This document shows, in pieces, positions 30 to 62,514 of a stretch of DNA of 64,000 bases (position 1 is the first letter of the stretch; each line of letters opens with the position of its first letter). This DNA is from Nanobdellati archaeon. GTDB lineage: Archaea > B1Sed10-29 > JAGVWA01. Below the pieces are notes generated by a model. That model was not told the DNA's origin, searched no databases, and saw only the letters and a list, made by a program, of their open reading frames with translations. The stretch lies in assembly GCA_018304505.1 (NCBI GenBank), contig JAGVWA010000001.1:68363-132362 (forward strand). The letters are read 5' to 3'. The translations under genes and the position numbers were made by a program.

Positions 30-1313
30 ATGAATCACGAACTAATCATACTCGGCATCATTTTAGCCACGATTCCTGCATGGATTTTCGGCAGGCACTT
101 TAAGTCAGCCCAGAATCACGGGCCACTGGTCTTGTGGAAAACCAAGAAGGGCCTAAAGTACCTGGATAAGCTGGCTGCACACGAGAATTTCTTTACCGTG
201 CTAGCCGACTTGGGCATCATATTCTGCCTTGGCGTCTTCGGCGCGTATTACTTCTACAAGAAAAAAACGCATTCGCTCAGGCGCATCATTGCTTATTACG
301 TTTTCTTCCTCGCCGCAGGTTACGGCATCTACTACATAGCAACGCTTAACACCACCGGCCTTGATCTGCTCGCAGCCCTCGCCGTTGGGGGCTTTGCCCT
401 CTTTATAACCTACTCGCTGGTACTCAACACGGGCCTAATAATAATGAGCTACCTCCTCGGCATGGCCCCTAGCCCCGGCATTGCACCGGTTATTCCAGGT
501 GTCGAAATCCCCGGATCACCGTTGTTTGTCCCGCTGGTTCCTGGCGTCATTGCCCTGATAATTCTGATGGTGGTGCACGAGTTCAGCCACGGCATCCTCG
601 CGAGGGTTGAAAAAATCCACGTGAAGTCCCTCGGCATCCTTAGCCTGGGCATCTTCCCTATAGGCGCATTTACCGAACCTGACGAGGCGCAGCTAAAACG
701 CGTGGATGAACAGCGACGCATGCGGGTTTACGCGGCCGGCTCGATGGCGAATTTTGCAGCCATGGCCTTTTTTCTGTTGCTGCTGTTCGGAGCGCAATCG
801 CTAATCTCAGATGGGATGCAGCAGGAGTACCTCTCGACGCTGGATTACATCAACGTCACAGGCACAGCAGCGGGCTTAGAACGTCTTGCTGGCTTGCAGA
901 TCTACAACACCCAAGATGTTTTTTCTCAAGAGCGGGTTCCAGGAAAACAGCTGACACTACAAACCAACCAAGGCGACATCCAGGTTACCAGAAACGATCA
1001 GGGCATGATCGGCATATCAAGCTACACGGCGCACCAGTTCATGCAGCCAAGCCTCGGGTTCCAGGTAAAACAGGGCTTGCTTGAGGTGCTTTTGTGGTCC
1101 TTCATGCTGAACCTGCTTGTAGGCATTGTCAACTTCCTGCCCTTTTTCGTGTTTGACGGGGCCAAGATCTTTGAAGACGCCGTGAAGTTTTATGGAAGAA
1201 CACTCGGTACGCCTGACGGGATTTTTGCACACAGTGCCACGGTCTCGATGAGCATCTTCATCTTTATCCTGTTGATAATAAATGTGATGCCGTACTTCGT
1301 GGCGCGCATTTAG
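30..1313 (+). CDS. Site-2 protease (peptidase M50, RseP-like) membrane zinc metalloprotease
   Basis: Multi-TM protein with HEFSHG (HExxH) motif and downstream NLLPFFVFDG (LDG) motif typical of the M50 family. Confidence 0.75.
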   Translation: MNHELIILGIILATIPAWIFGRHFKSAQNHGPLVLWKTKKGLKYLDKLAAHENFFTVLADLGIIFCLGVFGAYYFYKKKTHSLRRIIAYYVFFLAAGYGIYYIATLNTTGLDLLAALAVGGFALFITYSLVLNTGLIIMSYLLGMAPSPGIAPVIPGVEIPGSPLFVPLVPGVIALIILMVVHEFSHGILARVEKIHVKSLGILSLGIFPIGAFTEPDEAQLKRVDEQRRMRVYAAGSMANFAAMAFFLLLLFGAQSLISDGMQQEYLSTLDYINVTGTAAGLERLAGLQIYNTQDVFSQERVPGKQLTLQTNQGDIQVTRNDQGMIGISSYTAHQFMQPSLGFQVKQGLLEVLLWSFMLNLLVGIVNFLPFFVFDGAKIFEDAVKFYGRTLGTPDGIFAHSATVSMSIFIFILLIINVMPYFVARI

Positions 1314-11947: not shown

Positions 11948-14392
11948 ATGGAATACATTGCTGACTTACATTTGCACTCTGCTTATTCTCGCGCAACAAG
12001 CCCAAAAATGAACCCAATTGACTTGTCAGAAGCAGCAAAGGTAAAAGGCGTCAACCTCATCGGCACTGGCGATTTTACACACCCAAAGCACCTCGATTTT
12101 TTGAAACAAAACCTAAAACAAGACACAGCTACCGGCTTTTACCAATATAATGGCATGGATTTTGTCTTGACTGCAGAAATAAGTTTAATGTACACCCAGG
12201 GTGGCAAAGGACGACGGGTTCATCACTTGCTCTTCGCGCCAGACTTTGAAACAGTAGACCAAGTCAACGCAGAGCTGGACAAGTGGGGCCGCAGGGACTA
12301 TGACGGCCGGCCCATTTTCGGCAAGCCCAGTATAGACCTAGTAGAAATGACACAATCAATTTCAGACAAAATCGAGATCATACCGGCGCATTGTTTGCTT
12401 CCTAAAACACCAATACATTGCAACCCCCAAACCAAAGATATTGATAAAGTCAAAAAAGGGGATATTGTCTATACCCACACCGGAAAAAAAAGAAAGGTTA
12501 AAGCAGTATATTCCAGACCATATATTGGAAAAACATATACTATAAAACCATGGTATTTCTCGCTAGGACTGACAACAACTGATGAGCACCCCTTCTTTGC
12601 TATAAACTCTTATAAGAACTGCTCTTGGATTAACGGCAAACCACAATGTTCCCAAAAGGACACCTATAAAAAAACCCCCTTCAAGAAGTATAAACCTGAA
12701 TGGATACAAGCAAAAAACCTGAAAATTGGAGACGTTATCCTCTACCCCCGATTTAGACAGATTAAAGACATTCAACAACTTGGCACTAGAAAAATAGTAA
12801 AACAAAACCTTAGAAACAAAAAGAAAGTGCCGGCTCAAATACAAATAGATGCAGATTTCTGCAGACTAATAGGGTACTATCTCGCTGAGGGCTATTCGAA
12901 TAGGAGGGATAGAATAGGGTTCACATTTAGAGAGACAGAAACAGAGTACTTAAACGACATACAACACATTATCAAAAATCAATTTGATCTTACTCCAAAA
13001 ACAGGAAAAGATAACGGCTTAAGCAAAGATCTTGTGTATTCTTCTAAAGAACTAATGCAATTGTTTGAGCACTTATGCTATTCACAAAATTCCAAAAAGA
13101 ATGCTATAACTAAAAAACTAAACCCCATCTTCATGGAATTACCAATGGCAAAACAAAAGGAGCTCTTTAGAGGTTGGTGGAGAGGCGATAAAGGATATAC
13201 CTCTTCAAGAGAATTGATGAACCAAATGAAAGTAATATGCTTAAGAATGGGCATTATCCCTTCTGTTCTTGTGGATTCAAAAGATAAACATACTCGCAGA
13301 GGAAATCATTACTACACAACAGAAAAAAGATTAATCAAATCCAATGCAGACAACTATAGTTTAAGCAACCTCGCATTCTTTGGAGAAAATCTTGACTTAT
13401 TAAAAGACCCATCCTTTAAAAAATTCAAAACAAAAATGAAAAGGCGACATGGGTGGATTGATGAAAATTATGCCTACCTTCCAATACGCGAAATAATCGA
13501 AGAAGAATATACAGGGCCTGTTTTCAACCTAGAGGTAGACATCGATAACTCGTATGTATCTGAGTTTGCCACAGTACATAATTGCTGGACCCCGTGGTTC
13601 GGAATCTTTGGCAGCAACGGCGGCTTCGACTCAATCAAGGAATGCTTCCAGGAAAAATCGAAACACATACACGCAATCGAGACCGGGCTCTCTAGCGACC
13701 CTGCAATGAACTGGCGCTTATCGAATTTAGATGACATTGCATTGATTTCCAATTCCGATTCGCATTCACCCTATCCGTGGCGCTTTGGCAGGGAAGCGAC
13801 GGCATTCGACATAACTGGATACGCAGACATGCTTACCGCAATAAGAAAACGCGATCCAAAAAAACTGCTGTACACCATCGAAGTCGACCCAGCCTACGGA
13901 AAATACCATTACGATGGCCACCGAAACTGCGGTTTTGAGTGCTCGCCAGAAGAAACCAAAAAACTCAGCGCAGTTTGCCCCAAGTGCAACAAGCCCATTA
14001 CAATTGGCGTTGAATCCAGGGTGGACGAACTCGCCGACAGGCCACACGGTTACACGCCAAAGAACGCCATACCCTACAAGACCTTGCTGCCGCTAGCAGA
14101 GCTGATAGCAAACCTTACAGGATCTGGTTTAGCAACAAAAAAGGTAATGGAGCCACACGACCTCCTAGTTAGTAGGCACGGCACTGAACTAAATGTACTG
14201 CTCAACGTGCCTGAAGAGGAATTGAAAAAAACGGTGCATGAGAAACTAGTTAAAGCAATCATGCTGAACCGCGAAGGCAAAATCAGTGTGAAGCCGGGCT
14301 ATGACGGCGTCTATGGCGTACCCCAATTCGATTTCTCGCTCGACAGCACACAAAAACAAAACATTCCTCAGAAGACCTTGAACGATTTCTAG
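11948..14392 (+). CDS. Endonuclease Q (PHP-domain, TIGR00375 family) containing an intein
   Basis: N-terminal PHP motif DLHLHSAYS...GTGDFTHP; C-terminal Zn finger CPKCNKPITIGVESRVDEL. The extein is ~417 aa once the 397-aa insertion is removed. Confidence 0.75.
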   Translation: MEYIADLHLHSAYSRATSPKMNPIDLSEAAKVKGVNLIGTGDFTHPKHLDFLKQNLKQDTATGFYQYNGMDFVLTAEISLMYTQGGKGRRVHHLLFAPDFETVDQVNAELDKWGRRDYDGRPIFGKPSIDLVEMTQSISDKIEIIPAHCLLPKTPIHCNPQTKDIDKVKKGDIVYTHTGKKRKVKAVYSRPYIGKTYTIKPWYFSLGLTTTDEHPFFAINSYKNCSWINGKPQCSQKDTYKKTPFKKYKPEWIQAKNLKIGDVILYPRFRQIKDIQQLGTRKIVKQNLRNKKKVPAQIQIDADFCRLIGYYLAEGYSNRRDRIGFTFRETETEYLNDIQHIIKNQFDLTPKTGKDNGLSKDLVYSSKELMQLFEHLCYSQNSKKNAITKKLNPIFMELPMAKQKELFRGWWRGDKGYTSSRELMNQMKVICLRMGIIPSVLVDSKDKHTRRGNHYYTTEKRLIKSNADNYSLSNLAFFGENLDLLKDPSFKKFKTKMKRRHGWIDENYAYLPIREIIEEEYTGPVFNLEVDIDNSYVSEFATVHNCWTPWFGIFGSNGGFDSIKECFQEKSKHIHAIETGLSSDPAMNWRLSNLDDIALISNSDSHSPYPWRFGREATAFDITGYADMLTAIRKRDPKKLLYTIEVDPAYGKYHYDGHRNCGFECSPEETKKLSAVCPKCNKPITIGVESRVDELADRPHGYTPKNAIPYKTLLPLAELIANLTGSGLATKKVMEPHDLLVSRHGTELNVLLNVPEEELKKTVHEKLVKAIMLNREGKISVKPGYDGVYGVPQFDFSLDSTQKQNIPQKTLNDF
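12392..13582 (+). mobile_element. Intein (Hint plus LAGLIDADG homing endonuclease) inside the EndoQ gene
   Basis: Begins CLLPKTPI and ends VHN followed by Cys. LAGLIDADG blocks LIGYYLAEGYS and KELFRGWWRGDKGYTS. The insert is AT-rich relative to the extein. Confidence 0.8.
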
Positions 14393-32066: not shown

Positions 32067-34829
32067 TTACTTGTACCGAAGCATTGCGCCGATTCCGCCG
32101 AAGCCCTGCAGGAACTTCCTCCCAGCTTCTGTTTCCGTTGAAATTATTTCAATCTCCGCGCCGGTTTGTTCAGCAAGTTCAATGAACACATCGACTAAAT
32201 CCTTAAGTTCCACTTCCTGTTTTGCATTGCATTCCTTGCAAACGTGGTTCTCCTTGTTGAACTGAAAAACGCTTTTTACTGTTTGCTCCTCAACATGCCC
32301 ATTCGTGCACGTCATGGTTGCGCGCTTCCAGTCAATGTCCTCGGACAGCAAAACCAACTTGGCCTGCCCATTTAGTAGGACCTGCTTTACAATCTCTTCC
32401 CCATACACAGCCAAACCTTTTTTGGCGGCCTCCGCGATGAAGTCCTCGACGAGTTTCATTTCCTTGTGTATCTCCAGGTCCTTGATCAGGCCCTCTGACA
32501 TGTTCACTGCTTCCTGAATTCCAAATTCGTCTGTGTAGCCCGTATCGACAATGCCAATGAACTTGGCGGTGATGTTGTTGTGCAGGTTCGAGTTTTTCGC
32601 GAACGCGTGCTTAGTGGGCCCGCTGCCCCCGAGTATGATGCCCGTGATTTTCTCGTCTGCAAAGATCTCATTCATTGATTCTGCGATTTCCTTGAAAAAC
32701 AATTCTGCTTGTTCTTCTATTAGGCGATCGAAACGCAGGGCTGAATTGTGTACCACGAGATTGTTGGCTACAAAGGATTCGGTAGCCGGAACCGCCAAGT
32801 CCCAGTACTTTCCTGTTGGGTTTTCAAGCACCTGTTTTTCCTTAACCTCTACCTGCATAAGTTCTGAGGCTCCGATTTTTTCCAGCAGGTTTAGGTATGA
32901 ACGCTCTTCAAAAGACAATAGCTTACCGTGAAGCGCTTTTTTGGCGGCTGAGACAATGTTTTTGTTGTAAACCTTGAAACTGATGTTCCTGTGCCCGTTC
33001 AAAAACCCATTTGCTGCCTGAAACATGGTGGCTTTGAAGCCTAGCCGTAGTAACAGTTCTTTGATGAACCTTCCGCTTACAGGCACTTGGTCTGTGGTGC
33101 TCCTATAAGCCTCGGATAACTTTATCTTCGCTTGTTTTTTGGCGCTTGCAAACCCTATGTGCTCTTTAAAAAGTGCTCTTGAAGTTGGTTCTGAAATGTC
33201 GATTTCGAATTGGTTTGACTGCGCCTTGACTTTATAGTTTGGCTTTGAGATCACTGATGATATTATGCCAAAGCGCAATAGGAGTAATTGGATTTGCTTT
33301 ATCATTAGCTCGTTGGCCATTGCAAGGCAAATTCGTGACCCTCGGCATGAATCCCCTGTTTTTCTGTTGTTGACGTAGCCCTCGCCATCGAATAACCCTC
33401 TGAGGAAACCTTTCAATACCCGGTTTTCTGCCCTCATGATTTTCTCGGGAACGCTTATGGTCTTGCTTTTCTTTTCGAGTTCGGGGAAATTCATAACTAA
33501 GAAATCCCGGAAGTCGAGGCTGTGGATGGATACGACGTAATGGCCTTTGCTTGGCCTGTTTCTCATCGAGGGTTTGAGGCCTGTGGTTTTTTCAACCAAT
33601 GTGCAGTAGTGCCCTGCCACTTGTTTGTCGCCTTCATATAGCCTGATTCTGTTCCGCTCAAGGTTGCCGTCTACGAGCATATACCCGACTAACTGGACCA
33701 AGTCGCTTGTTAGCGTTTCCTGAGCAATGAAGGGCTCGTACTTCGTCACGTATCTTGAAAAAAAGTCCTCCTTGTCGAGTCCATAAATCGCTAGTATCCG
33801 TTCTATTGTTGTGTCAAGTAAATCCGCTTTTCCTATCTCAAAGTTAGATAGTGTGGCTTGTGCAATGCCTGCTTTTTCGGCGGCATCCCGCTGAAGCATT
33901 TTCAGGGATTTGCGTTTGCTTATCAGTTGCTCTCTACCGCTGTTTGTTATTCTATAGACCAGCGGCAGTTGTTGAAGGCTTACAGGCCCTGTGTTGACAT
34001 AAATCTTTCTGACTGACAAAATCATATCCCCTTTTTCGATGTCTGCTGCCTGTTTTGCCCTGATGCCCGTATTGCCTAAGGTGAAGAAATAGTGCTCGGG
34101 TGTGGTGTTGATTTCAAGCTGGGGAGATGTTGTTCTGATAATGTAGGCTTCGTCGCTTGTTTTTGAAAACACTTGCTCGCACTTTTGGCACCCAAGCTTG
34201 AAGTTCACGTTGTCTGAAGACACGACAACGTCGCCCGCCTTCACGTGCTTTAGCGGCAAGATCACGCCATCTTGTCTCTGTATCAGCGTGTCTTCGTGCA
34301 GGCATTGCCCCCCTTTGTGGTGTTTTCCCGGCACTGTGGAGTGCATTTTTTTGATGATGTTTGACTGCTTGCCTTTCATGATCGCCAGGGTCGCCTCGCG
34401 GCGGTCCATTACCACGATGCCGTACTGATCCTTTGCCTCTAAGTATCGCTCTAGGGGCTCTACAAGAAATGTTGAGTCGCAGCGATAGGTCTGAATAGGT
34501 ATTGGGTCTTCAGGAGGCACTACTGTAAACACCTCAATTTTGTTGTCGATGCTGCCGGCGAAAATCGCTACGCCGTTCTCTGGCGGTTTATTGACCCCTT
34601 TAAGCATGTGCAGAATCCGCTCCAGGGCAGACTGCACGTTCTTTCTGGTCTGCTTCGACTTGATGTTCGAGGCTTGCCCCATCTCATCGCGCAGTTTGGC
34701 AACTACATCGTTAACATTGTAGCTCGGCGGAATGTAAACACTAATCAACTCTGTGCCCTGCCCGCGTAGCGTTTTCAGGTGCTTGAGCTTCTTCTGGAAC
34801 TCGTAGAACTCCCTTGAATGCCGTGCCAT
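32067..34829 (-). CDS. prf1: Peptide chain release factor aRF1 containing a 520-aa intein in the GGQ motif
   Basis: NIKS motif (ASNIKSKQTR). GGQ is followed by the intein Cys, and the sequence resumes SALRFDRL after VVHN. The extein is ~400 aa. Start trimmed to MARHSREFYEF. Confidence 0.85.
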   Translation of the reverse strand: MARHSREFYEFQKKLKHLKTLRGQGTELISVYIPPSYNVNDVVAKLRDEMGQASNIKSKQTRKNVQSALERILHMLKGVNKPPENGVAIFAGSIDNKIEVFTVVPPEDPIPIQTYRCDSTFLVEPLERYLEAKDQYGIVVMDRREATLAIMKGKQSNIIKKMHSTVPGKHHKGGQCLHEDTLIQRQDGVILPLKHVKAGDVVVSSDNVNFKLGCQKCEQVFSKTSDEAYIIRTTSPQLEINTTPEHYFFTLGNTGIRAKQAADIEKGDMILSVRKIYVNTGPVSLQQLPLVYRITNSGREQLISKRKSLKMLQRDAAEKAGIAQATLSNFEIGKADLLDTTIERILAIYGLDKEDFFSRYVTKYEPFIAQETLTSDLVQLVGYMLVDGNLERNRIRLYEGDKQVAGHYCTLVEKTTGLKPSMRNRPSKGHYVVSIHSLDFRDFLVMNFPELEKKSKTISVPEKIMRAENRVLKGFLRGLFDGEGYVNNRKTGDSCRGSRICLAMANELMIKQIQLLLLRFGIISSVISKPNYKVKAQSNQFEIDISEPTSRALFKEHIGFASAKKQAKIKLSEAYRSTTDQVPVSGRFIKELLLRLGFKATMFQAANGFLNGHRNISFKVYNKNIVSAAKKALHGKLLSFEERSYLNLLEKIGASELMQVEVKEKQVLENPTGKYWDLAVPATESFVANNLVVHNSALRFDRLIEEQAELFFKEIAESMNEIFADEKITGIILGGSGPTKHAFAKNSNLHNNITAKFIGIVDTGYTDEFGIQEAVNMSEGLIKDLEIHKEMKLVEDFIAEAAKKGLAVYGEEIVKQVLLNGQAKLVLLSEDIDWKRATMTCTNGHVEEQTVKSVFQFNKENHVCKECNAKQEVELKDLVDVFIELAEQTGAEIEIISTETEAGRKFLQGFGGIGAMLRYK
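32745..34304 (-). mobile_element. Intein with LAGLIDADG endonuclease and an embedded HTH_XRE domain, inserted between GGQ and S of aRF1
   Basis: Starts CLHEDTLIQ and ends LVVHN followed by Ser. LAGLIDADG blocks LVGYMLVDGN and GFLRGLFDGEGYVN. The XRE-type HTH is LKMLQRDAAEKAGIAQATLSNFEIGKADLLDTTIERILAIYGL. GC content is close to that of the host gene. Confidence 0.8.
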
Positions 34830-34924
34830 GCCGATTTCATCTCTGGTGTGTGCGCCTGTGTGCAAAGAAAAGTCTTATATTGGTATTATGGGTTCTGTTA
34901 ATTATAAATGTTTCAGGGTATATT

Positions 34925-48845: not shown

Positions 48846-48916
48846 AATGAACGCTTGATTAATAAAACCTACGCCATTGCCAAAAAATTTGGTCCAAAAC
48901 CCCTGTTCATTTATAA

Positions 48917-48928
48917 AGCTTTATATAT
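48917..48928 (+). promoter_or_regulatory. BRE/TATA promoter (aaagcTTTATATAT) upstream of the TBP gene
   Basis: Same consensus as the S-layer and GT2 promoters. GGAGG sits at 48990-48994. Confidence 0.45.
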
Positions 48929-49001
48929 GAAGACGTTCAGAACCAATGTGGGGTTTATAAATACCCAGAACAGCCCTAATTTTCAACGAGGAGGTAAAAA
49001 A

Positions 49002-49976
49002 ATGGAGATTGATTTTAACATCGTGAACATCGTAGCATCAGCCAATCTAGACTGCGAACTCGACCTTTACAGCATCGCGCGCGAAGTAGACAACGTGGAA
49101 TACGAACCAGAACAATTCCCCGGTGCAATACTGAAACTAAAGTCACCGAAGACCAGCCTGCTTTTGTTCAAAAACGGCAAACTAATATGCACAGGCGCAA
49201 GAAGCGAAGAAGACGTAGGAAAGGCTGTAAATCGGACCTTCGAGAAAATCAAGCACTGCGTCCGGGGCAAGGTTGCAGATAAACCAGACATACCATTCGA
49301 AATCGTGAACATCGTAGCTGCAGCCAACCTTGAAAAGGAACTTGACCTTTACGGCATCGCGCGCGAAGTAGACAACGTGGAATATGAACCAGAACAATTC
49401 CCCGGTGCAATACTGAAACTAAAGAAACCGAAGACCAGCCTGCTTTTGTTCAAAAACGGCAAACTAATATGCACAGGCGCAAGAAGCGAAGAAGACGTAG
49501 GAAAAGCCCTGTCAGTAGCCGTGGAAGCCATAAAAGACAACATCAAGGGCAAGGCCAAGGAGAAGCCCAAGGAGGAGCGCAAGCTGACCCAGGTCTCCAA
49601 GACCAAACAAGAGATCATAACACCAACAATCACCTTTGAAGGCAAGAAGAAACCCAAGAGGAAGGTTGTTGCCGCGCTAAAAGAAGCGGTGGCAAAACCA
49701 AAAGCAACGGCGGTAAAGCCAGTAGTAAGGGCAAAAGCCCCCAAGGCAAAACCAAAAGCAGTGGCAGCAGCAAAAACAAAAACAAAGGCACCGACAAAGA
49801 AACCAGCAATGAAGAAAAAAGCAGCCCCACGAAAAGCAAAGGCCACAAAGAAAGTGACGGCCAAAAAAACCCCCACGAAGAAAGCAGTAAAGAAAAAAAC
49901 AGCAACATCAAGTGCAAAGAAAAAGCCACAGAAAAAGGGGGCACTTTCACGGCTGTTAAAAGCGGTCCGCGGCTGA
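49002..49976 (+). CDS. tbp: TATA-box binding protein with near-identical internal repeats and a Lys/Ala/Pro-rich basic C-terminal tail
   Basis: Two TBP repeats (IVNIVASANL...EYEPEQFPGAILKL...LLFKNGKLICTGARSEEDV). A ~140-aa KAKPKA/KKT-type tail follows. Start trimmed to MEIDFN. Confidence 0.9.
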   Translation: MEIDFNIVNIVASANLDCELDLYSIAREVDNVEYEPEQFPGAILKLKSPKTSLLLFKNGKLICTGARSEEDVGKAVNRTFEKIKHCVRGKVADKPDIPFEIVNIVAAANLEKELDLYGIAREVDNVEYEPEQFPGAILKLKKPKTSLLLFKNGKLICTGARSEEDVGKALSVAVEAIKDNIKGKAKEKPKEERKLTQVSKTKQEIITPTITFEGKKKPKRKVVAALKEAVAKPKATAVKPVVRAKAPKAKPKAVAAAKTKTKAPTKKPAMKKKAAPRKAKATKKVTAKKTPTKKAVKKKTATSSAKKKPQKKGALSRLLKAVRG

Positions 49977-53385: not shown

Positions 53386-53772
53386 ATGCAAAAGAAGGGC
53401 ATGCGCTATGCATTGCCCCCCCTTTTATTTCTAGCACTCGTCCTGATTAGCGGCTGCACTGCCCCAAACACGCAGGACATCGATTACAGCACCGTAACGA
53501 GCAAGGCAACGCAGGCTAGTGGAGCAGCACAAGCTCCACGCGTGCTATACCTCAACGTCACGGGGCTATGGTGCGGCCAATGTGATGAGCGCGTAGAAAA
53601 CTTAATAGCAGCAGCCCCCGGCATTGAATCAGTTGAGGTCACGATTACTGACCGAGAAAACGAACTCGGGGTGGCGCGCGTTGTTTACGACCCCTCGCTG
53701 ATTATGAAAGAGCAAATCTCTGCACTGACAGAACCGTACTCTTCGAGCATTGTTTCTGACCGAGTTCTGTGA
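53386..53772 (+). CDS. Lipoprotein with HMA-like (heavy-metal-associated) domain
   Basis: Lipobox LISGC. GLWCGQCDERVE is a variant of the GMTCxxC metal-binding motif. Confidence 0.45.
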   Translation: MQKKGMRYALPPLLFLALVLISGCTAPNTQDIDYSTVTSKATQASGAAQAPRVLYLNVTGLWCGQCDERVENLIAAAPGIESVEVTITDRENELGVARVVYDPSLIMKEQISALTEPYSSSIVSDRVL

Positions 53773-53783
53773 CAAAACCAAGG

Positions 53784-53820
53784 TAAGTGAAAAGCGTCCC
53801 CACCGGGATTTTCTCCGCAA
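53784..53820. repeat. R1: direct repeat derived from the tRNA 3' end (aagtgaaaagcgtccccaccgggatt + ttctccgcaa)
   Basis: On the minus strand it reads GCGGAGAAAAUCCCGGUGGGGACGC-UUUUCACUUA, which equals the downstream tRNA 3' exon with an internal deletion. Confidence 0.6.
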
Positions 53821-53902
53821 ACCAACGCGCGCTTAATAAATGCACAATAAATCAACAATAAACCTTATATACAATAAACACTGAATATACATTGGTGATG
53901 CA

Positions 53903-54139
53903 ATGAATGTAGCTCTAGGAACCCCCTATGAAGTAATCATGACCAAGCTCATTGAAAGAGGCTATGCTGGAAACCAAACCGAGGTAATTAGACAAGCACT
54001 CATGGCTTATGAACGCCAAGTAGACCAAGAGGAAGTTGAGCTCGTTAACAAGGCCATTGAACTCGACATGCAAGACATACGATCCAGCAAGGCGAAAACA
54101 TACAGCCTGGCAGAAGTAAAGAAAAAACTCAAACTGTGA
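53903..54139 (+). CDS. ParD/CopG-type antitoxin
   Basis: 78 aa; KLIERGYAGNQTEVIRQALMAYE matches the COG3609 antitoxin. Confidence 0.6.
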   Translation: MNVALGTPYEVIMTKLIERGYAGNQTEVIRQALMAYERQVDQEEVELVNKAIELDMQDIRSSKAKTYSLAEVKKKLKL

Positions 54140-54405
54140 TTTTCATGGAAATTGAGTTTTCAGAGCTAGCACTAAAACAGCTAGGCAACATGGACAAACA
54201 TCTACAGACCTTATTTTACAAACACGCCGAGAAATTACAAAACTTGCCCCCGCGGCGGCACATGAAATTCGGCATGCCGTTCAACGTTGAAGAAGTGACA
54301 AAACAAGCGCGCATGCTCTATGATATTGAAGAAAACACGATGTATATCACCCGGTGTTTCGCAACCCACAAGGACTATGAGAAATTTTTCACGTCCTACA
54401 AGTGA
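54136..54405 (+). CDS. ParE/RelE-family toxin
   Basis: 89 aa with a 4-nt overlap with the antitoxin and the C-terminal RCFATHKDYEKF (H-K-D-Y) motif. Confidence 0.6.
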   Translation: MIFMEIEFSELALKQLGNMDKHLQTLFYKHAEKLQNLPPRRHMKFGMPFNVEEVTKQARMLYDIEENTMYITRCFATHKDYEKFFTSYK

Positions 54406-54409
54406 AAAA

Positions 54410-54433
54410 TAAGTGAAAAGCGTCCCCGCCAAG
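54410..54433. repeat. R2: direct repeat (taagtgaaaagcgtccccgccaag)
   Basis: Shares the AGTGAAAAGCGTCCCCGCC core with R1, R3 and the tRNA 3' end. Confidence 0.6.
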
Positions 54434-54544
54434 TTTATGCTTTAGAGAAAAAAACCTGTTCTAAAATATCAGCTTGCTTTAAAATGCTCTTAAAGGTCTT
54501 CCGTGGCAACTGGCCCTTTTTGTCAGGCACAACCGCTGTTAACT

Positions 54545-54661
54545 TAACTTCACCCTAGAATTTAATAAGGCATACAGGGCTTCCCTTGCGCCGTATTGGT
54601 GAGAATCCGAAGTTGTTGCACAGAATCTTGAGAACGTCATGCCCTGACAACGGTTTTCGCT
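54545..54661 (-). pseudogene. Truncated HicA-like toxin remnant (38 aa)
   Basis: MSQKRKPLSGHDVLKILCNNFGFSPIRRKGSPVCLIKF resembles the HicA N-terminus (ILKK.GF...R.KGSH) but stops early. It overlaps the hicB 3' end by ~25 nt. Confidence 0.3.
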
Positions 54662-54939
54662 TCTGCGACATCGCTTCCCCCCTCCCGCGCAAGGTTTACC
54701 TTGACCTTTATTGGGGGGTTTTCCTCATAGTATACTGAAAGTGCTTCTTCAAATGCCTTTACAGCTTCTTGTTTTGTATCGCCATAACTGCTGACGTGGG
54801 TCACGGGATCTGTCACTACCCAGACCGCACCTTCTTTCTCGATCTCGATTTTTCTCCTCTCAATCTTGTTGAATTGAATTTCAACAGTTTTTAGAGCCAT
54901 CATATTTATTGCCCCCCCTGCGTTAATAAACCTTGGCAT
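54637..54939 (-). CDS. HicB-like (UPF0150) antitoxin
   Basis: VWVVTDPVTHVSSYGDTKQEAVKAFEEALSVYYEE matches the HicB/COG1598 consensus. Confidence 0.55.
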   Translation of the reverse strand: MPRFINAGGAINMMALKTVEIQFNKIERRKIEIEKEGAVWVVTDPVTHVSSYGDTKQEAVKAFEEALSVYYEENPPIKVKVNLAREGGSDVAEAKTVVRA

Positions 54940-55007
54940 AACTTATGACTGGCTTTGCTTATAACGATTTTGCCACAGGAGATAGTTTAAACTGGTTTAA
55001 ACCAGAA

Positions 55008-55035
55008 TGAGTAAAAAGCGTCCCCGCCGGGATTC
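55008..55035. repeat. R3: direct repeat (tgagtaaaaagcgtccccgccgggattcc)
   Basis: Its last 18 nt (gcgtccccgccgggattc) are identical to the tRNA 3' end at 55774-55791. Confidence 0.6.
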
Positions 55036-55126
55036 CATTGATGATGTGAAATGACACCAACCTTTATATACGAGTTAATACAAAATAGTTATTAAGTAAT
55101 ATCAATTCATGGGGGGGTAATGTAAA

Positions 55127-55420
55127 ATGGCAGGGCACGGGCAAACCGTAATGATACAAAAGCAGATGGTGCACCCATCACCGACACTGAATACAGTAAT
55201 AATGGTCGAAGAAACATTGAAGAACATGCCTGGAAGCGTTATGAAGGTATCAGATCTCAAACGGGCACTACCAAAAAAGGTTAACCACAACGCCCTTATG
55301 GTGATTTTAGAATACTTAGACATAAGCAACAAAATCTACATCGGTGTAAAGGGTATCACCTGGCTAGGAGAACCAAATAAGAGGCTACAACGGGCCATAG
55401 ATACAGGTTTCGAACTATGA
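55127..55420 (+). CDS. putative antitoxin (wHTH-like) of the third TA module
   Basis: 97 aa with a 4-nt overlap with the downstream RelE/ParE-like toxin. Confidence 0.35.
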   Translation: MAGHGQTVMIQKQMVHPSPTLNTVIMVEETLKNMPGSVMKVSDLKRALPKKVNHNALMVILEYLDISNKIYIGVKGITWLGEPNKRLQRAIDTGFEL

Positions 55421-55764
55421 AAACAACAAGGGTCGTTTTTTCAGATGAAGCAGAGGAAGTCTACAAATATCTAAATGTGCAGGCTAAGAAATCAAAAATA
55501 GAAGCCAGCATCTTAAGGGCCATCAAAAACAAATCAGAACTCATAAAAGCTAATCCCCAATACGGCGAGACTATAGCTAAAAGCAAAATACCTGAAGACT
55601 ACAAAATCAAGTACGATGTTAAAAGCCTGTACTGGGTTCCCCTGCCAAATTTTTGGCGCATGTTTTACACGCTTTCCAAAAATGGAGAAATAGAAATCAT
55701 AGCCTTTGTTCTAGATTTTCTTGACCACAAACAGTACAATAAGAAATTTGGATACAAAAGTTAG
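55417..55764 (+). CDS. RelE/ParE-superfamily toxin
   Basis: 115 aa; C-terminal LDFLDHKQYNKKFGY has the H-K-x-Y signature. Confidence 0.5.
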   Translation: MKTTRVVFSDEAEEVYKYLNVQAKKSKIEASILRAIKNKSELIKANPQYGETIAKSKIPEDYKIKYDVKSLYWVPLPNFWRMFYTLSKNGEIEIIAFVLDFLDHKQYNKKFGYKS

Positions 55765-55773
55765 CAAAGAAGC

Positions 55774-55996
55774 GTCCCCGCCGGGATTCGAACCCGGGTC
55801 TCAGGCTCCGCAAGCCCATATTCTATTTGCCCTACAGTGCCTGGTTTGGAACAGCTCCATTGCGAAGCAATGGGGCGAATCTGCTTTTCTACAGCAAATT
55901 AAAGATTTACTGAGAAATCGAAAAAGCTTTGCTTTTTCGTATTTCCCCAGGCTTTTGCAGTTGCAAAAGGCTGTATCCAGGCTATACTACGGGGAC
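55774..55996 (-). tRNA. tRNA candidate, probably Arg (GCG), split by a ~150-nt intervening sequence between the D arm and anticodon arm
   Basis: The 3' part (55774-55820) reads UGGGC-UUGCGGA-GCCUG, then AGAC, then CCGGG-UUCGAAU-CCCGG and CGGGGAC-G. The matching 5' acceptor GUCCCCG and a perfect D arm (UA GUAU AGCCUGG AUAC) lie at 55996-55972. Confidence 0.45.
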
Positions 55997-56079
55997 ACTT
56001 ACATTGATTGTGATTTTTGAGTTAATAAAAACAATGGGCTGTGCAAAGCATTTTATAGCGCGGGGGCATAATTAAACTC

Positions 56080-62367: not shown

Positions 62368-62514
62368 GCACCAGTAGTCTAGTGGTATGACTCGGCCTTG
62401 CCAACGAAGGGTTTCACCCTCTCGACACCTGAAGCGCACCTTCAGTAGCGCGGTGTTCATGATGAAATCTCAGGTAAACAGGCCGTGGCCCGGGTTCAAT
62501 TCCCGGCTGGTGCA
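62368..62514 (+). tRNA. tRNA-Gly(GCC) with 76-nt intron carrying box C/D-like motifs
   Basis: GCACCAG UA GUCUAGUGGUAUGAC U CGGCC-UUGCCAA-[76 nt]-GGCCG UGGC CCGGG-UUCAAUU-CCCGG CUGGUGC A. The intron contains CUGA and AUGAUGA. Confidence 0.7.

Follow-up and report, generated by a model that had tools for sequence, protein, structure and literature searches.

We analyzed a stretch of 64,000 nt from contig JAGVWA010000001.1 of a Nanobdellati archaeon (assembly GCA_018304505.1), which will be called the window. The locus at positions 55774–55996 very probably holds a tRNA-Arg(GCG) gene that looks functional, belongs to an uncultivated DPANN archaeon, and is interrupted in the D loop by one 150-nt protein-spliced intron of the bulge-helix-bulge (BHB) type. 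Copies of the 3′ end of the same gene bound three small toxin-antitoxin-like gene cassettes next to it, which supports the view that the gene acted as the anchor of these cassettes. Both features, the intron-bearing tRNA gene and the cassette array at a tRNA end, belong to already known kinds. The window is archaeal, and the tRNA-Arg gene lies among housekeeping genes (EF-1beta, S17e, RpoK, PTH2, Hjc, DnaG, and SerRS).

The tRNA-Arg(GCG) gene and the position of its predicted intron

The features of the gene are listed below; in the sequences, an arrow marks a predicted cut.

55774–55996, minus strand: whole tRNA-Arg(GCG) gene, 223 nt including the intron; CCA is not encoded, and the discriminator G is at 55773
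55977–55996, minus strand: exon 1, 20 nt, GUCCCCG UA GUAU AGCCUGG (acceptor 5′ strand, U8 A9, D-stem 5′ strand, D-loop nucleotides 1–7)
55827–55976, minus strand: intron, 150 nt, placed by the BHB scan in the D loop after ...AGCCUGG (linear nucleotide 20, AGCCUGG↓AUA)
55774–55826, minus strand: exon 2, 53 nt, AUA GAAU A UGGGC UUGCGGA GCCUG AGAC CCGGG UUCGAAU CCCGG CGGGGAC (remaining D loop, D-stem 3′ strand, anticodon arm, 4-nt variable loop, T arm, acceptor 3′ strand)
55809–55811, minus strand: anticodon GCG, from ARAGORN on the spliced sequence and the segment print-out
55976–55982, minus strand: 5′ half of the BHB, central strand GCCU 55982–55979, bulge GG↓A 55978–55976; predicted cut 55977/55976
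55826–55837, minus strand: 3′ half of the BHB, inner strand CUGUA 55837–55833, central strand GGGC 55832–55829, bulge AA↓A 55828–55826; predicted cut 55827/55826
56022–56031, minus strand: TATA-like box TTTTTATTAA, 26–35 nt before the start of the tRNA gene; putative archaeal promoter, found by inspection

An earlier reading of the letters without database searches (the sequence-only reading) had proposed a tRNA-Arg(GCG) gene at exactly these coordinates, in two parts separated by 150 nt, and both claims were confirmed. Read from 55774, the plus strand begins with GTCCCCGCCGGGATTCGAACCCGG, in which a T arm and an acceptor 3′ strand appear in reverse complement; this puts the gene on the minus strand. 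In the raw, unspliced locus, no tRNA was called by ARAGORN or by Rfam at the gathering threshold, and at E ≤10 Rfam matched the T arm alone, via tmRNA and mascRNA fragments. The ARAGORN check proposed with the sequence-only reading thus failed on the raw locus, but it yielded tRNA-Arg(GCG) on spliced sequences from which about 150 nt had been deleted. Because ARAGORN accepted nearly any junction, it was unable to place the intron. Elsewhere in the window, ARAGORN found three other tRNAs, and Rfam at the gathering threshold found the archaeal signal recognition particle RNA and four tRNAs, one of them with an intron.

A search for a BHB motif had also been recommended, and every junction pair was scanned for an outer helix and a 4-bp helix with one 3-nt bulge on each of the two strands, each bulge being cut after its second base. 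This is the register of the yeast and archaeal literature. Only one candidate had a tRNA-sized product (73 nt), with exon 1 ending at nucleotide 20 and exon 2 starting at gene position 171 (AUAGAAUAUGGGC...). Its motif is a strict BHB, in which the D-loop GCCU pairs with GGGC near the 3′ end of the intron (central helix, 4/4 pairs), flanked by the bulges GG↓A and AA↓A, an inner helix UACAG/CUGUA of 5 bp (UACAG at 55975–55971), and an outer helix of 2 bp. No nearby junction in the scan approached this motif. When the intron was shuffled and the exons were kept fixed, only 7 of 200,000 trials gave a 4/4 central helix here together with an inner helix of 5 bp or more. The intron and exon 2 both begin with AUA, and therefore four junction registers lead to one identical product; among these equivalent registers, the BHB geometry picks GG↓A.

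The comparison with orthologous tRNAs, a further check suggested at the outset, pointed to the same site. Species-representative genomes were searched with a pattern from the anticodon arm to the 3′ end, and two loci were returned. L005 is an intron-less 73-nt tRNA-Arg(GCG) (GTCCCCGTGGTGTAGCCTGG·ATAGCATTGTGGCTTGCGG...). L006, from a Candidatus Woesearchaeota metagenome-assembled genome, has the same exons and a 34-nt insert exactly after AGCCTGG; without these 34 nt, it is identical to the L005 tRNA base for base. The BHB register of L006 (GCCU/AGGC, bulges GG↓U and AC↓A) matches that of the window. A metagenome scan yielded three further intron-less 73-nt orthologs (L008–L010) and also two other tRNAs. 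The 20 nt of exon 1, with R at two positions (GTCCCCGTRGTRTAGCCTGG), open L005, L006, and L008–L010, and the spliced window product can be aligned without gaps, with 65 of 73 nucleotides identical to L005 and 59–61 of 73 to L008–L010. Hence, three states were observed at one nucleotide position: no intron, 34 nt, and 150 nt. The BHB scan and the comparative test together place the predicted intron in the D loop, between Sprinzl positions G19 and A20. Exon 2 starts with A20, a base that serves several systems as an identity element for arginine.

The spliced 73-nt product reads GUCCCCG-UA-GUAU-AGCCUGGAUA-GAAU-A-UGGGC and continues as in exon 2 to the acceptor 3′ strand. By inspection, it contains all universal tRNA positions (U8, A14, G18 G19, A21, U33, G53 U54 U55 C56, A58, and C61). 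RNAalifold did not return a cloverleaf as the consensus of four sequences, and explicit pair counting was used instead, with a stated cloverleaf applied to the spliced product and three orthologs (84 base-pair cells). Pairing was found in 83 of the 84 cells, the exception being A12×A23, and five cloverleaf pairs showed compensatory double changes. In the control, in which the 3′ partners were slid, pairing fell to 33–55%. Archaeal TATA boxes are usually found at −26/−27, close to the position of the TATA-like box listed above, and T-rich runs were seen by inspection 3′ of the gene.

Taken together, these data are consistent with the following pathway. The 223-nt body would be transcribed from the TATA-like box about 30 nt upstream, and the BHB seen in the sequence would form in the precursor. 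The archaeal splicing endonuclease EndA would cut both bulges, and an RtcB-type ligase would join the exons, both roles being those of the respective families. The product would be a 73-nt tRNA that is co-linear with the intron-less orthologs. The freed intron would fold into several hairpins and would probably be circularized, with the predicted circle junction ...GGGCAA↓AUACAGCC...

L006 was itself misannotated by standard tools. ARAGORN miscalled its D-loop-intron tRNA-Arg (400–506, plus strand) as 432–508, and the Rfam tRNA model missed it at the gathering threshold. This indicates that tRNA genes with D-loop introns are systematically lost from DPANN annotations. L005 (CAZKVR010000003.1) is labelled 'Methanosarcinales archaeon', but its tRNA-Arg and downstream flank are much like those of the Woesearchaeota genome L006, and the bin assignment of L005 may thus be wrong.

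Structure, variation, and alternative interpretations of the intron

The GC content of the intron is 43%, compared to 62% for the exons. The intron folds far better than shuffled sequences (z = −5.0; 0 of 300 shuffles were equally stable), and the z-score of the whole gene is −5.85. Four or five hairpins were predicted, closed by the inner helix of the BHB. Perfect hairpins, which the sequence-only reading had reported, were recovered in the predicted fold, such as CGAAAAAGC-AAA-GCUUUUUCG and CCAUUGC-UUC-GCAAUGG, and further hairpins are CUUUUGCA.../...UGCAAAAG and UUUGCUG.../...CAGAUU. The first of these perfect hairpins is part of a longer one:

55910–55950, minus strand: long intron hairpin, CUGGGGAA-AUA-(CGAAAAAGC-AAA-GCUUUUUCG)-A-UUUCUCAG, gene positions 47–87

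The intron did not match any Rfam family, neither at the gathering threshold nor at E ≤10. Box C/D motifs were not found in the intron (no RUGAUGA with ≤1 mismatch, no CUGA), and there was no second intron copy in the window or the fetched loci. Relatives with the 150-nt intron were detected neither in the genome-collection scan (two species) nor in the metagenome scan, which returned only intron-less orthologs and the two other tRNAs. A syntenic relative (L032) lacks the tRNA altogether. The nearest relatives of the DnaG encoded in the window are 58–68% identical, and the named ones are Micrarchaeota.

The motif AGCCUGG...AUAC, which forms the exon/intron boundary at gene position 14, occurs a second time inside the intron at gene position 44, an arrangement found in 21 of 100,000 shuffles. 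The duplication may reflect the origin of the insert. In the BHB model, the intron copy of AGCCUGG pairs with CCAGGC, and thereby the exon copy is freed for the BHB.

The tRNA-Arg gene is also present on four near-identical contigs from other samples. All 4 real differences between L019 and the window over 1,159 bp fall in the intron, as do 2 of the 6 differences between L001 and the window over 13.7 kb. The exons are identical in all sampled strains, while the intron varies. The U48–A86 pair of the long hairpin is replaced by G48–C86 in L019 (two changes), and L001 represents the single-change intermediate. This is one covariation event in favor of the long hairpin. The contigs L004, L018, L019, and L022 end inside the intron; they were considered as alternative alleles and rejected, because they match the window to the last base. 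The breaks are therefore assembly effects, and it is most likely that the perfect hairpins break assemblies.

The sequence-only reading had left open whether the locus contains a large intron at a non-canonical position or a tRNA gene disrupted by insertion. The strict BHB and the L006 intron at the same site support the intron much better, but not at the position that had been proposed. In that gene model, an intron of about 153 nt separates the D arm from the anticodon arm at 26/27, exon 1 ends with ...GUAU-AGCCUGG-AUAC-A, exon 2 begins with UGGGC, and the tRNA has 70 nt. The model has the appeal of a perfect 4-bp D stem, GUAU/AUAC, and its product is accepted by ARAGORN as tRNA-Arg(GCG). 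However, a BHB, which is strict at G19/A20, is missing at the 26/27 junction, where no more than 2 of the 4 central-helix pairs can form, too few for the scan, which called for 3 pairs or more. The product would have a 7-nt D loop without A21 and a 3-nt D-loop gap compared to every ortholog. The bases discarded by the model (AUAGAAUA) are homologous to AUAGCAUU/AUAGCACG of the orthologs. In addition, the intron of L006 follows AGCCUGG and is not at 26/27. The 26/27 model is therefore extremely improbable. The 'perfect D arm' GUAU-AGCCUGG-AUAC arose because its 3′ strand AUAC consists of the first four intron bases, whereas the true stem is GUAU/GAAU. The anticodon arm, which had also been called perfect, includes two G·U pairs, and the 3′ part of 47 nt was too short, as exon 2 comprises 53 nt.

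Several observations weigh against a functional tRNA gene with a BHB intron. The mature D stem has the A12×A23 mismatch where the relatives have G12–C23, and the anticodon stem UGGGC/GCCUG opens with U·G followed by G·U. When the BHB is imposed on the precursor together with the acceptor, anticodon, and T arms, the fold reaches −81.6 to −82.4 kcal/mol, compared to −91.4 kcal/mol without constraints, and is thus about 9–10 kcal/mol less stable. In the unconstrained minimum fold, the exon GCCUGG is paired elsewhere than in the BHB; it can pair with the intron CCAGGC or form a pseudo D arm with the intron AUAC. As no homolog of the 150-nt intron was found, its structure rests on thermodynamics and a single covariation, and the concentration of strain differences in the intron suggests weak sequence constraint. 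EndA and RtcB families are absent from the Pfam calls on genes within the 64-kb window, most of the genome being outside. Nevertheless, a second BHB-type intron, at the canonical position of a tRNA-Gly gene in the window, implies that the host has splicing machinery.

The two weak stems, the BHB-containing fold that is not the minimum free energy fold, and the high density of single-nucleotide polymorphisms in the intron would also fit a decaying or disabled tRNA gene, that is, a pseudogene disrupted by insertion or a poorly spliced, defective gene, with Arg CGY decoding by another gene elsewhere. The AGCCUGG...AUAC duplication within the insert likewise hints at an origin by insertion or duplication at the DNA level. 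In contrast, the shuffling result given above makes a strict BHB at exactly the ortholog-defined junction improbable by chance, the universal tRNA positions are all intact after splicing, the TATA-like box is at the expected distance, and the exons, unlike the intron, are invariant across the sampled strains. A disabled gene is thus unlikely, and the functional-looking gene with a D-loop intron is the preferred interpretation.

Cassettes bounded by copies of the tRNA 3′ end

Downstream of the tRNA-Arg gene, a short sequence from its 3′ end alternates with small cassettes. From the tRNA gene outward, the following features were found:

55770–55788, minus strand: att-like core at the 3′ end of the live tRNA, AATCCCGGCGGGGAC + GCTT; plus strand AAGCGTCCCCGCCGGGATT
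55035–55769, plus strand: cassette 3, with its own TATA-like box; 97-aa protein 55127–55420 and predicted 115-aa ParE/RelE-fold toxin 55417–55764
55016–55034, minus strand: displaced core copy, 19/19 identical
54437–55015, minus strand: cassette 2, single 100-aa gene 54637–54939 with weak PHD-like/DUF7387 matches
54418–54436, minus strand: displaced core copy, 16/19 identical
53811–54417, plus strand: cassette 1, 78-aa ParD-like protein 53903–54139 overlapping an 89-aa gene 54136–54405
53792–53826, minus strand: most distal displaced copy; core 53792–53810, 18/19 identical

The 19-nt core AATCCCGGCGGGGACGCTT consists of the last 15 nt of the tRNA and 4 nt of the trailer. Four copies are present within 2 kb, at the cassette boundaries, and no copy with ≤4 substitutions was found elsewhere in the window. 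The other four tRNAs in the window do not have displaced end copies. The sequence-only reading had regarded the tRNA gene as the integration target of the neighboring cassettes. This view is supported, because the cassettes are flanked by three displaced copies of the 3′ end, a pattern not shared by any other tRNA of the window; the tRNA-Arg gene can thus be regarded as their probable anchor. Adjacent to the core of the distal copy, and preceding it, is GGTTTGCGGAG, a match to the anticodon-loop segment GGCTTGCGGAG of the tRNA-Arg. This suggests that it may be the remnant of an older, longer copy of the 3′ half with an internal deletion.

The cassette intervals have lengths of 607, 579, and 735 bp, and each contains one or two small genes and, by inspection, its own TATA-like box. 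Their GC content is 39–43%, compared to 46% for the flanks. The ParD-like match in cassette 1 had an E-value of 2.6e-5 with NCBIfam, which is below the cut-off. In cassette 3, the 97-aa gene is located upstream of the 115-aa gene, with an overlap of 4 nt. The AlphaFold (AF2) model of the 115-aa protein has a pLDDT (a model confidence score) of 81, and its top 24 PDB matches are toxins of the ParE/HigB/RelE type (probability 0.97–1.0); the Pfam ParE match had an E-value of 0.047. Based on the modeled structure, cassette 3 is predicted to be a type II toxin-antitoxin (TA) module of the ParE/RelE superfamily. The 115-aa protein has 784 homologs with 60–69% identity, and the taxa that encode them include Micrarchaeota, Nanoarchaeia, and Thermoplasmata. 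The small upstream gene always accompanies these homologs, while their neighborhoods differ. In contrast, no close relative was detected for the EF-1beta next to the tRNA-Arg gene. The core copies, the AT-richness, and the wide distribution of the toxin family compared to EF-1beta all fit horizontally mobile modules that were inserted serially at the tRNA 3′ end.

The array probably arose as follows, independently of the intron. The last ~19 nt of the tRNA-Arg plus trailer (AATCCCGGCGGGGAC-GCTT) would serve as the attachment site, at which three promoter-bearing cassettes, including at least one predicted TA pair of the ParE/RelE type, would have been inserted one after the other. Each insertion would regenerate the tRNA end and push the older core copy outward. 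The recombinase would presumably be a tyrosine recombinase acting in trans. Some results speak against this scenario: no integrase or recombinase was present among the cassette genes or in the Pfam calls across the 64-kb window, and neither an excised form nor a relative with an empty site was found. The core was not found in a viral contig collection, and displaced copies were absent at the orthologous tRNA-Arg loci L005–L010, which are distant and not syntenic.

Alternatively, the array might be of the integron type, that is, a CALIN (a cluster of attC sites without an integrase), or the result of local duplication, and the link to the tRNA might be coincidental. Most integrons of archaea are CALINs, and TA cassettes abound in them (PMC9668308). 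Like archaeal CALINs, the array is composed of small, promiscuous head-to-tail cassettes, is enriched in TA genes, and has no integrase nearby; the sizes of 0.6–0.75 kb are also integron-like, and a Nanoarchaeia locus has a homologous TA pair in a cassette run separated by another repeat. However, pairs of R''(RYYYAAC)...R'(GTTRRRY) as in attC sites were not found between the cassettes, and the boundaries have no excess hairpin potential (z −2.1 to +0.8). The sole shared element is the core derived from the tRNA end, in the 19/19, 18/19, and 16/19 copies listed above. The array is anchored on a tRNA and not on attI, it adjoins the 3′ end of the tRNA and has the orientation that an element integrating into a tRNA gene would take, and its distal copy retains the anticodon-loop remnant. 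Furthermore, the TATA-like box of each cassette is a difference to typical integron cassettes. Tandem duplication does not explain the array, as the genes in the cassettes are unrelated. An integron-type or duplicated array is thus very improbable, and serial insertion at the tRNA 3′ end remains the preferred interpretation.

The Nanoarchaeia locus (L023 3700–7000; GCA_028713895.1, JAQTNH010000001.1) has the homologous two-gene TA module within a run of small cassettes, which comprise an Apyc1-like metallo-beta-lactamase, the TA pair, and an HEPN/NTase pair. The separator is a repeat of 40–90 nt (reverse strand ...TCCAGTAATTCTTTGAGTCCTGGGGGCACG[C/G]TTCGTTAAC...), the 3′ part of which resembles GGGGACGCTTCTTTGCTAAC of the window. 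Whether this repeat marks another array anchored on a tRNA was also considered, but the idea was set aside, because a parent tRNA was not found within the 10-kb locus. The run hints that cassette stacking may be a wider phenomenon. Just outside the distal core copy of the window, a gene at 53386–53772 (plus strand) encodes a lipoprotein-like protein of 128 aa that contains a heavy-metal-associated (CopZ/MerP-like) domain.

A more far-reaching proposal has two independent parts. First, the 3′ end of the tRNA-Arg gene might be the docking site of a capture system distinct from integrons, in which TA/defense mini-cassettes of 0.6–0.75 kb that bear promoters and lack an integrase would be mobilized in trans and accumulate, in DPANN archaea, at a core of ~19 nt from a tRNA end. 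Second, the 150-nt multi-hairpin intron might be released as a stable RNA, probably circular, that has its own function. Taken jointly, the two parts are doubtful.

Comparison with known systems and further features of the window

To our knowledge, a length of 150 nt comes close to the upper limit of tRNA introns in archaea. The tRNA-Trp intron of Haloferax and other Euryarchaeota has about 100 nt, is located at the canonical position 37/38, and contains a box C/D guide RNA. Like that intron, the tRNA-Arg intron is long and structured and could persist independently once excised, but it resides in the D loop and has neither C/D boxes nor an Rfam match. D-loop BHB introns are known from the pre-tRNA-Glu(UUC) of Methanopyrus kandleri (20b/21), the tRNA-Thr of Aeropyrum pernix, and many tRNAs of Thermoproteales, and DPANN archaea including Woesearchaeota have been reported to show increased disruption of tRNA genes and tRNA sets that come out incomplete when standard predictors are used (PMC5829648). 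The tRNA-Arg intron resembles these introns in being BHB-defined and of the protein-spliced type, in its D-loop position, in being missed by standard finders, and in its DPANN host. In contrast to the relaxed HBh′ motif of the M. kandleri tRNA-Glu intron, its motif is a strict hBHBh′. It also differs from the known D-loop introns in its multi-hairpin structure without a recognizable family and in its length, which is several times the 34 nt of the L006 intron.

The other BHB-type intron of the window was found in tRNA-Gly(GCC) (62368–62514, plus strand). It has 76 nt, is at the canonical position 37/38, and contains a CUGA upstream of AUGAUGA; these motifs resemble boxes D and C and stand in D′/C′ or a permuted order. 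This intron may encode a C/D-box guide RNA, which would possibly be functional after circularization.

Archaeal integration at tRNA 3′ ends is known for elements of the pNOB8/SSV type. In the tycheposons of Prochlorococcus, tandem integrations with only partial tRNA copies between them have been described (bioRxiv 10.1101/2020.12.28.424599). The array of the window shares with such serial integrations that newcomers push older units outward, that the live tRNA is regenerated, and that the cargo is of the defense/TA type. Its units are different in that they have only 0.6–0.75 kb and one or two genes, the core has only ~19 nt, and an integrase is missing within 64 kb.

The recovery of a tRNA gene missed by ARAGORN and Rfam helps to explain "missing" tRNAs in DPANN genome bins. 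The series of 0, 34, and 150 nt at one site represents a snapshot of the gain or expansion of a non-canonical tRNA intron. According to one proposal, tRNA genes can gain introns through the integration of mobile elements (PMC3293823; PMC4033280), and the tRNA-Thr of Caldiarchaeum is a case of integration (PMC3293823). A single tRNA gene with both an intron and mini-cassettes bounded by tRNA ends bears on the debate about integration and tRNA disruption (PMC3293823). PMC4033280 attributes to Randau and Soll 2008 the idea that tRNA genes are protected from integration by their introns; the D-loop intron clearly gave the 3′-end site no protection, which bears on this proposal. The length and architecture of the intron, the 0/34/150-nt series, and the very small integrase-less cassettes at a tRNA end are unusual traits, but current understanding is not overturned.

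Further observations concern other genes of the window. The eRF1 gene (32067–34865, minus strand) contains an intein with a LAGLIDADG homing-endonuclease domain, and an 814-aa MJ0043-like protein (11948–14392, plus strand) has faint intein and LAGLIDADG matches. A 206-nt direct repeat with 93% identity and a spacing of 282 is located at 49020–49507 (plus strand) inside the open reading frame 48855–49976, and contigs of one metagenome assembly break near this repeat.

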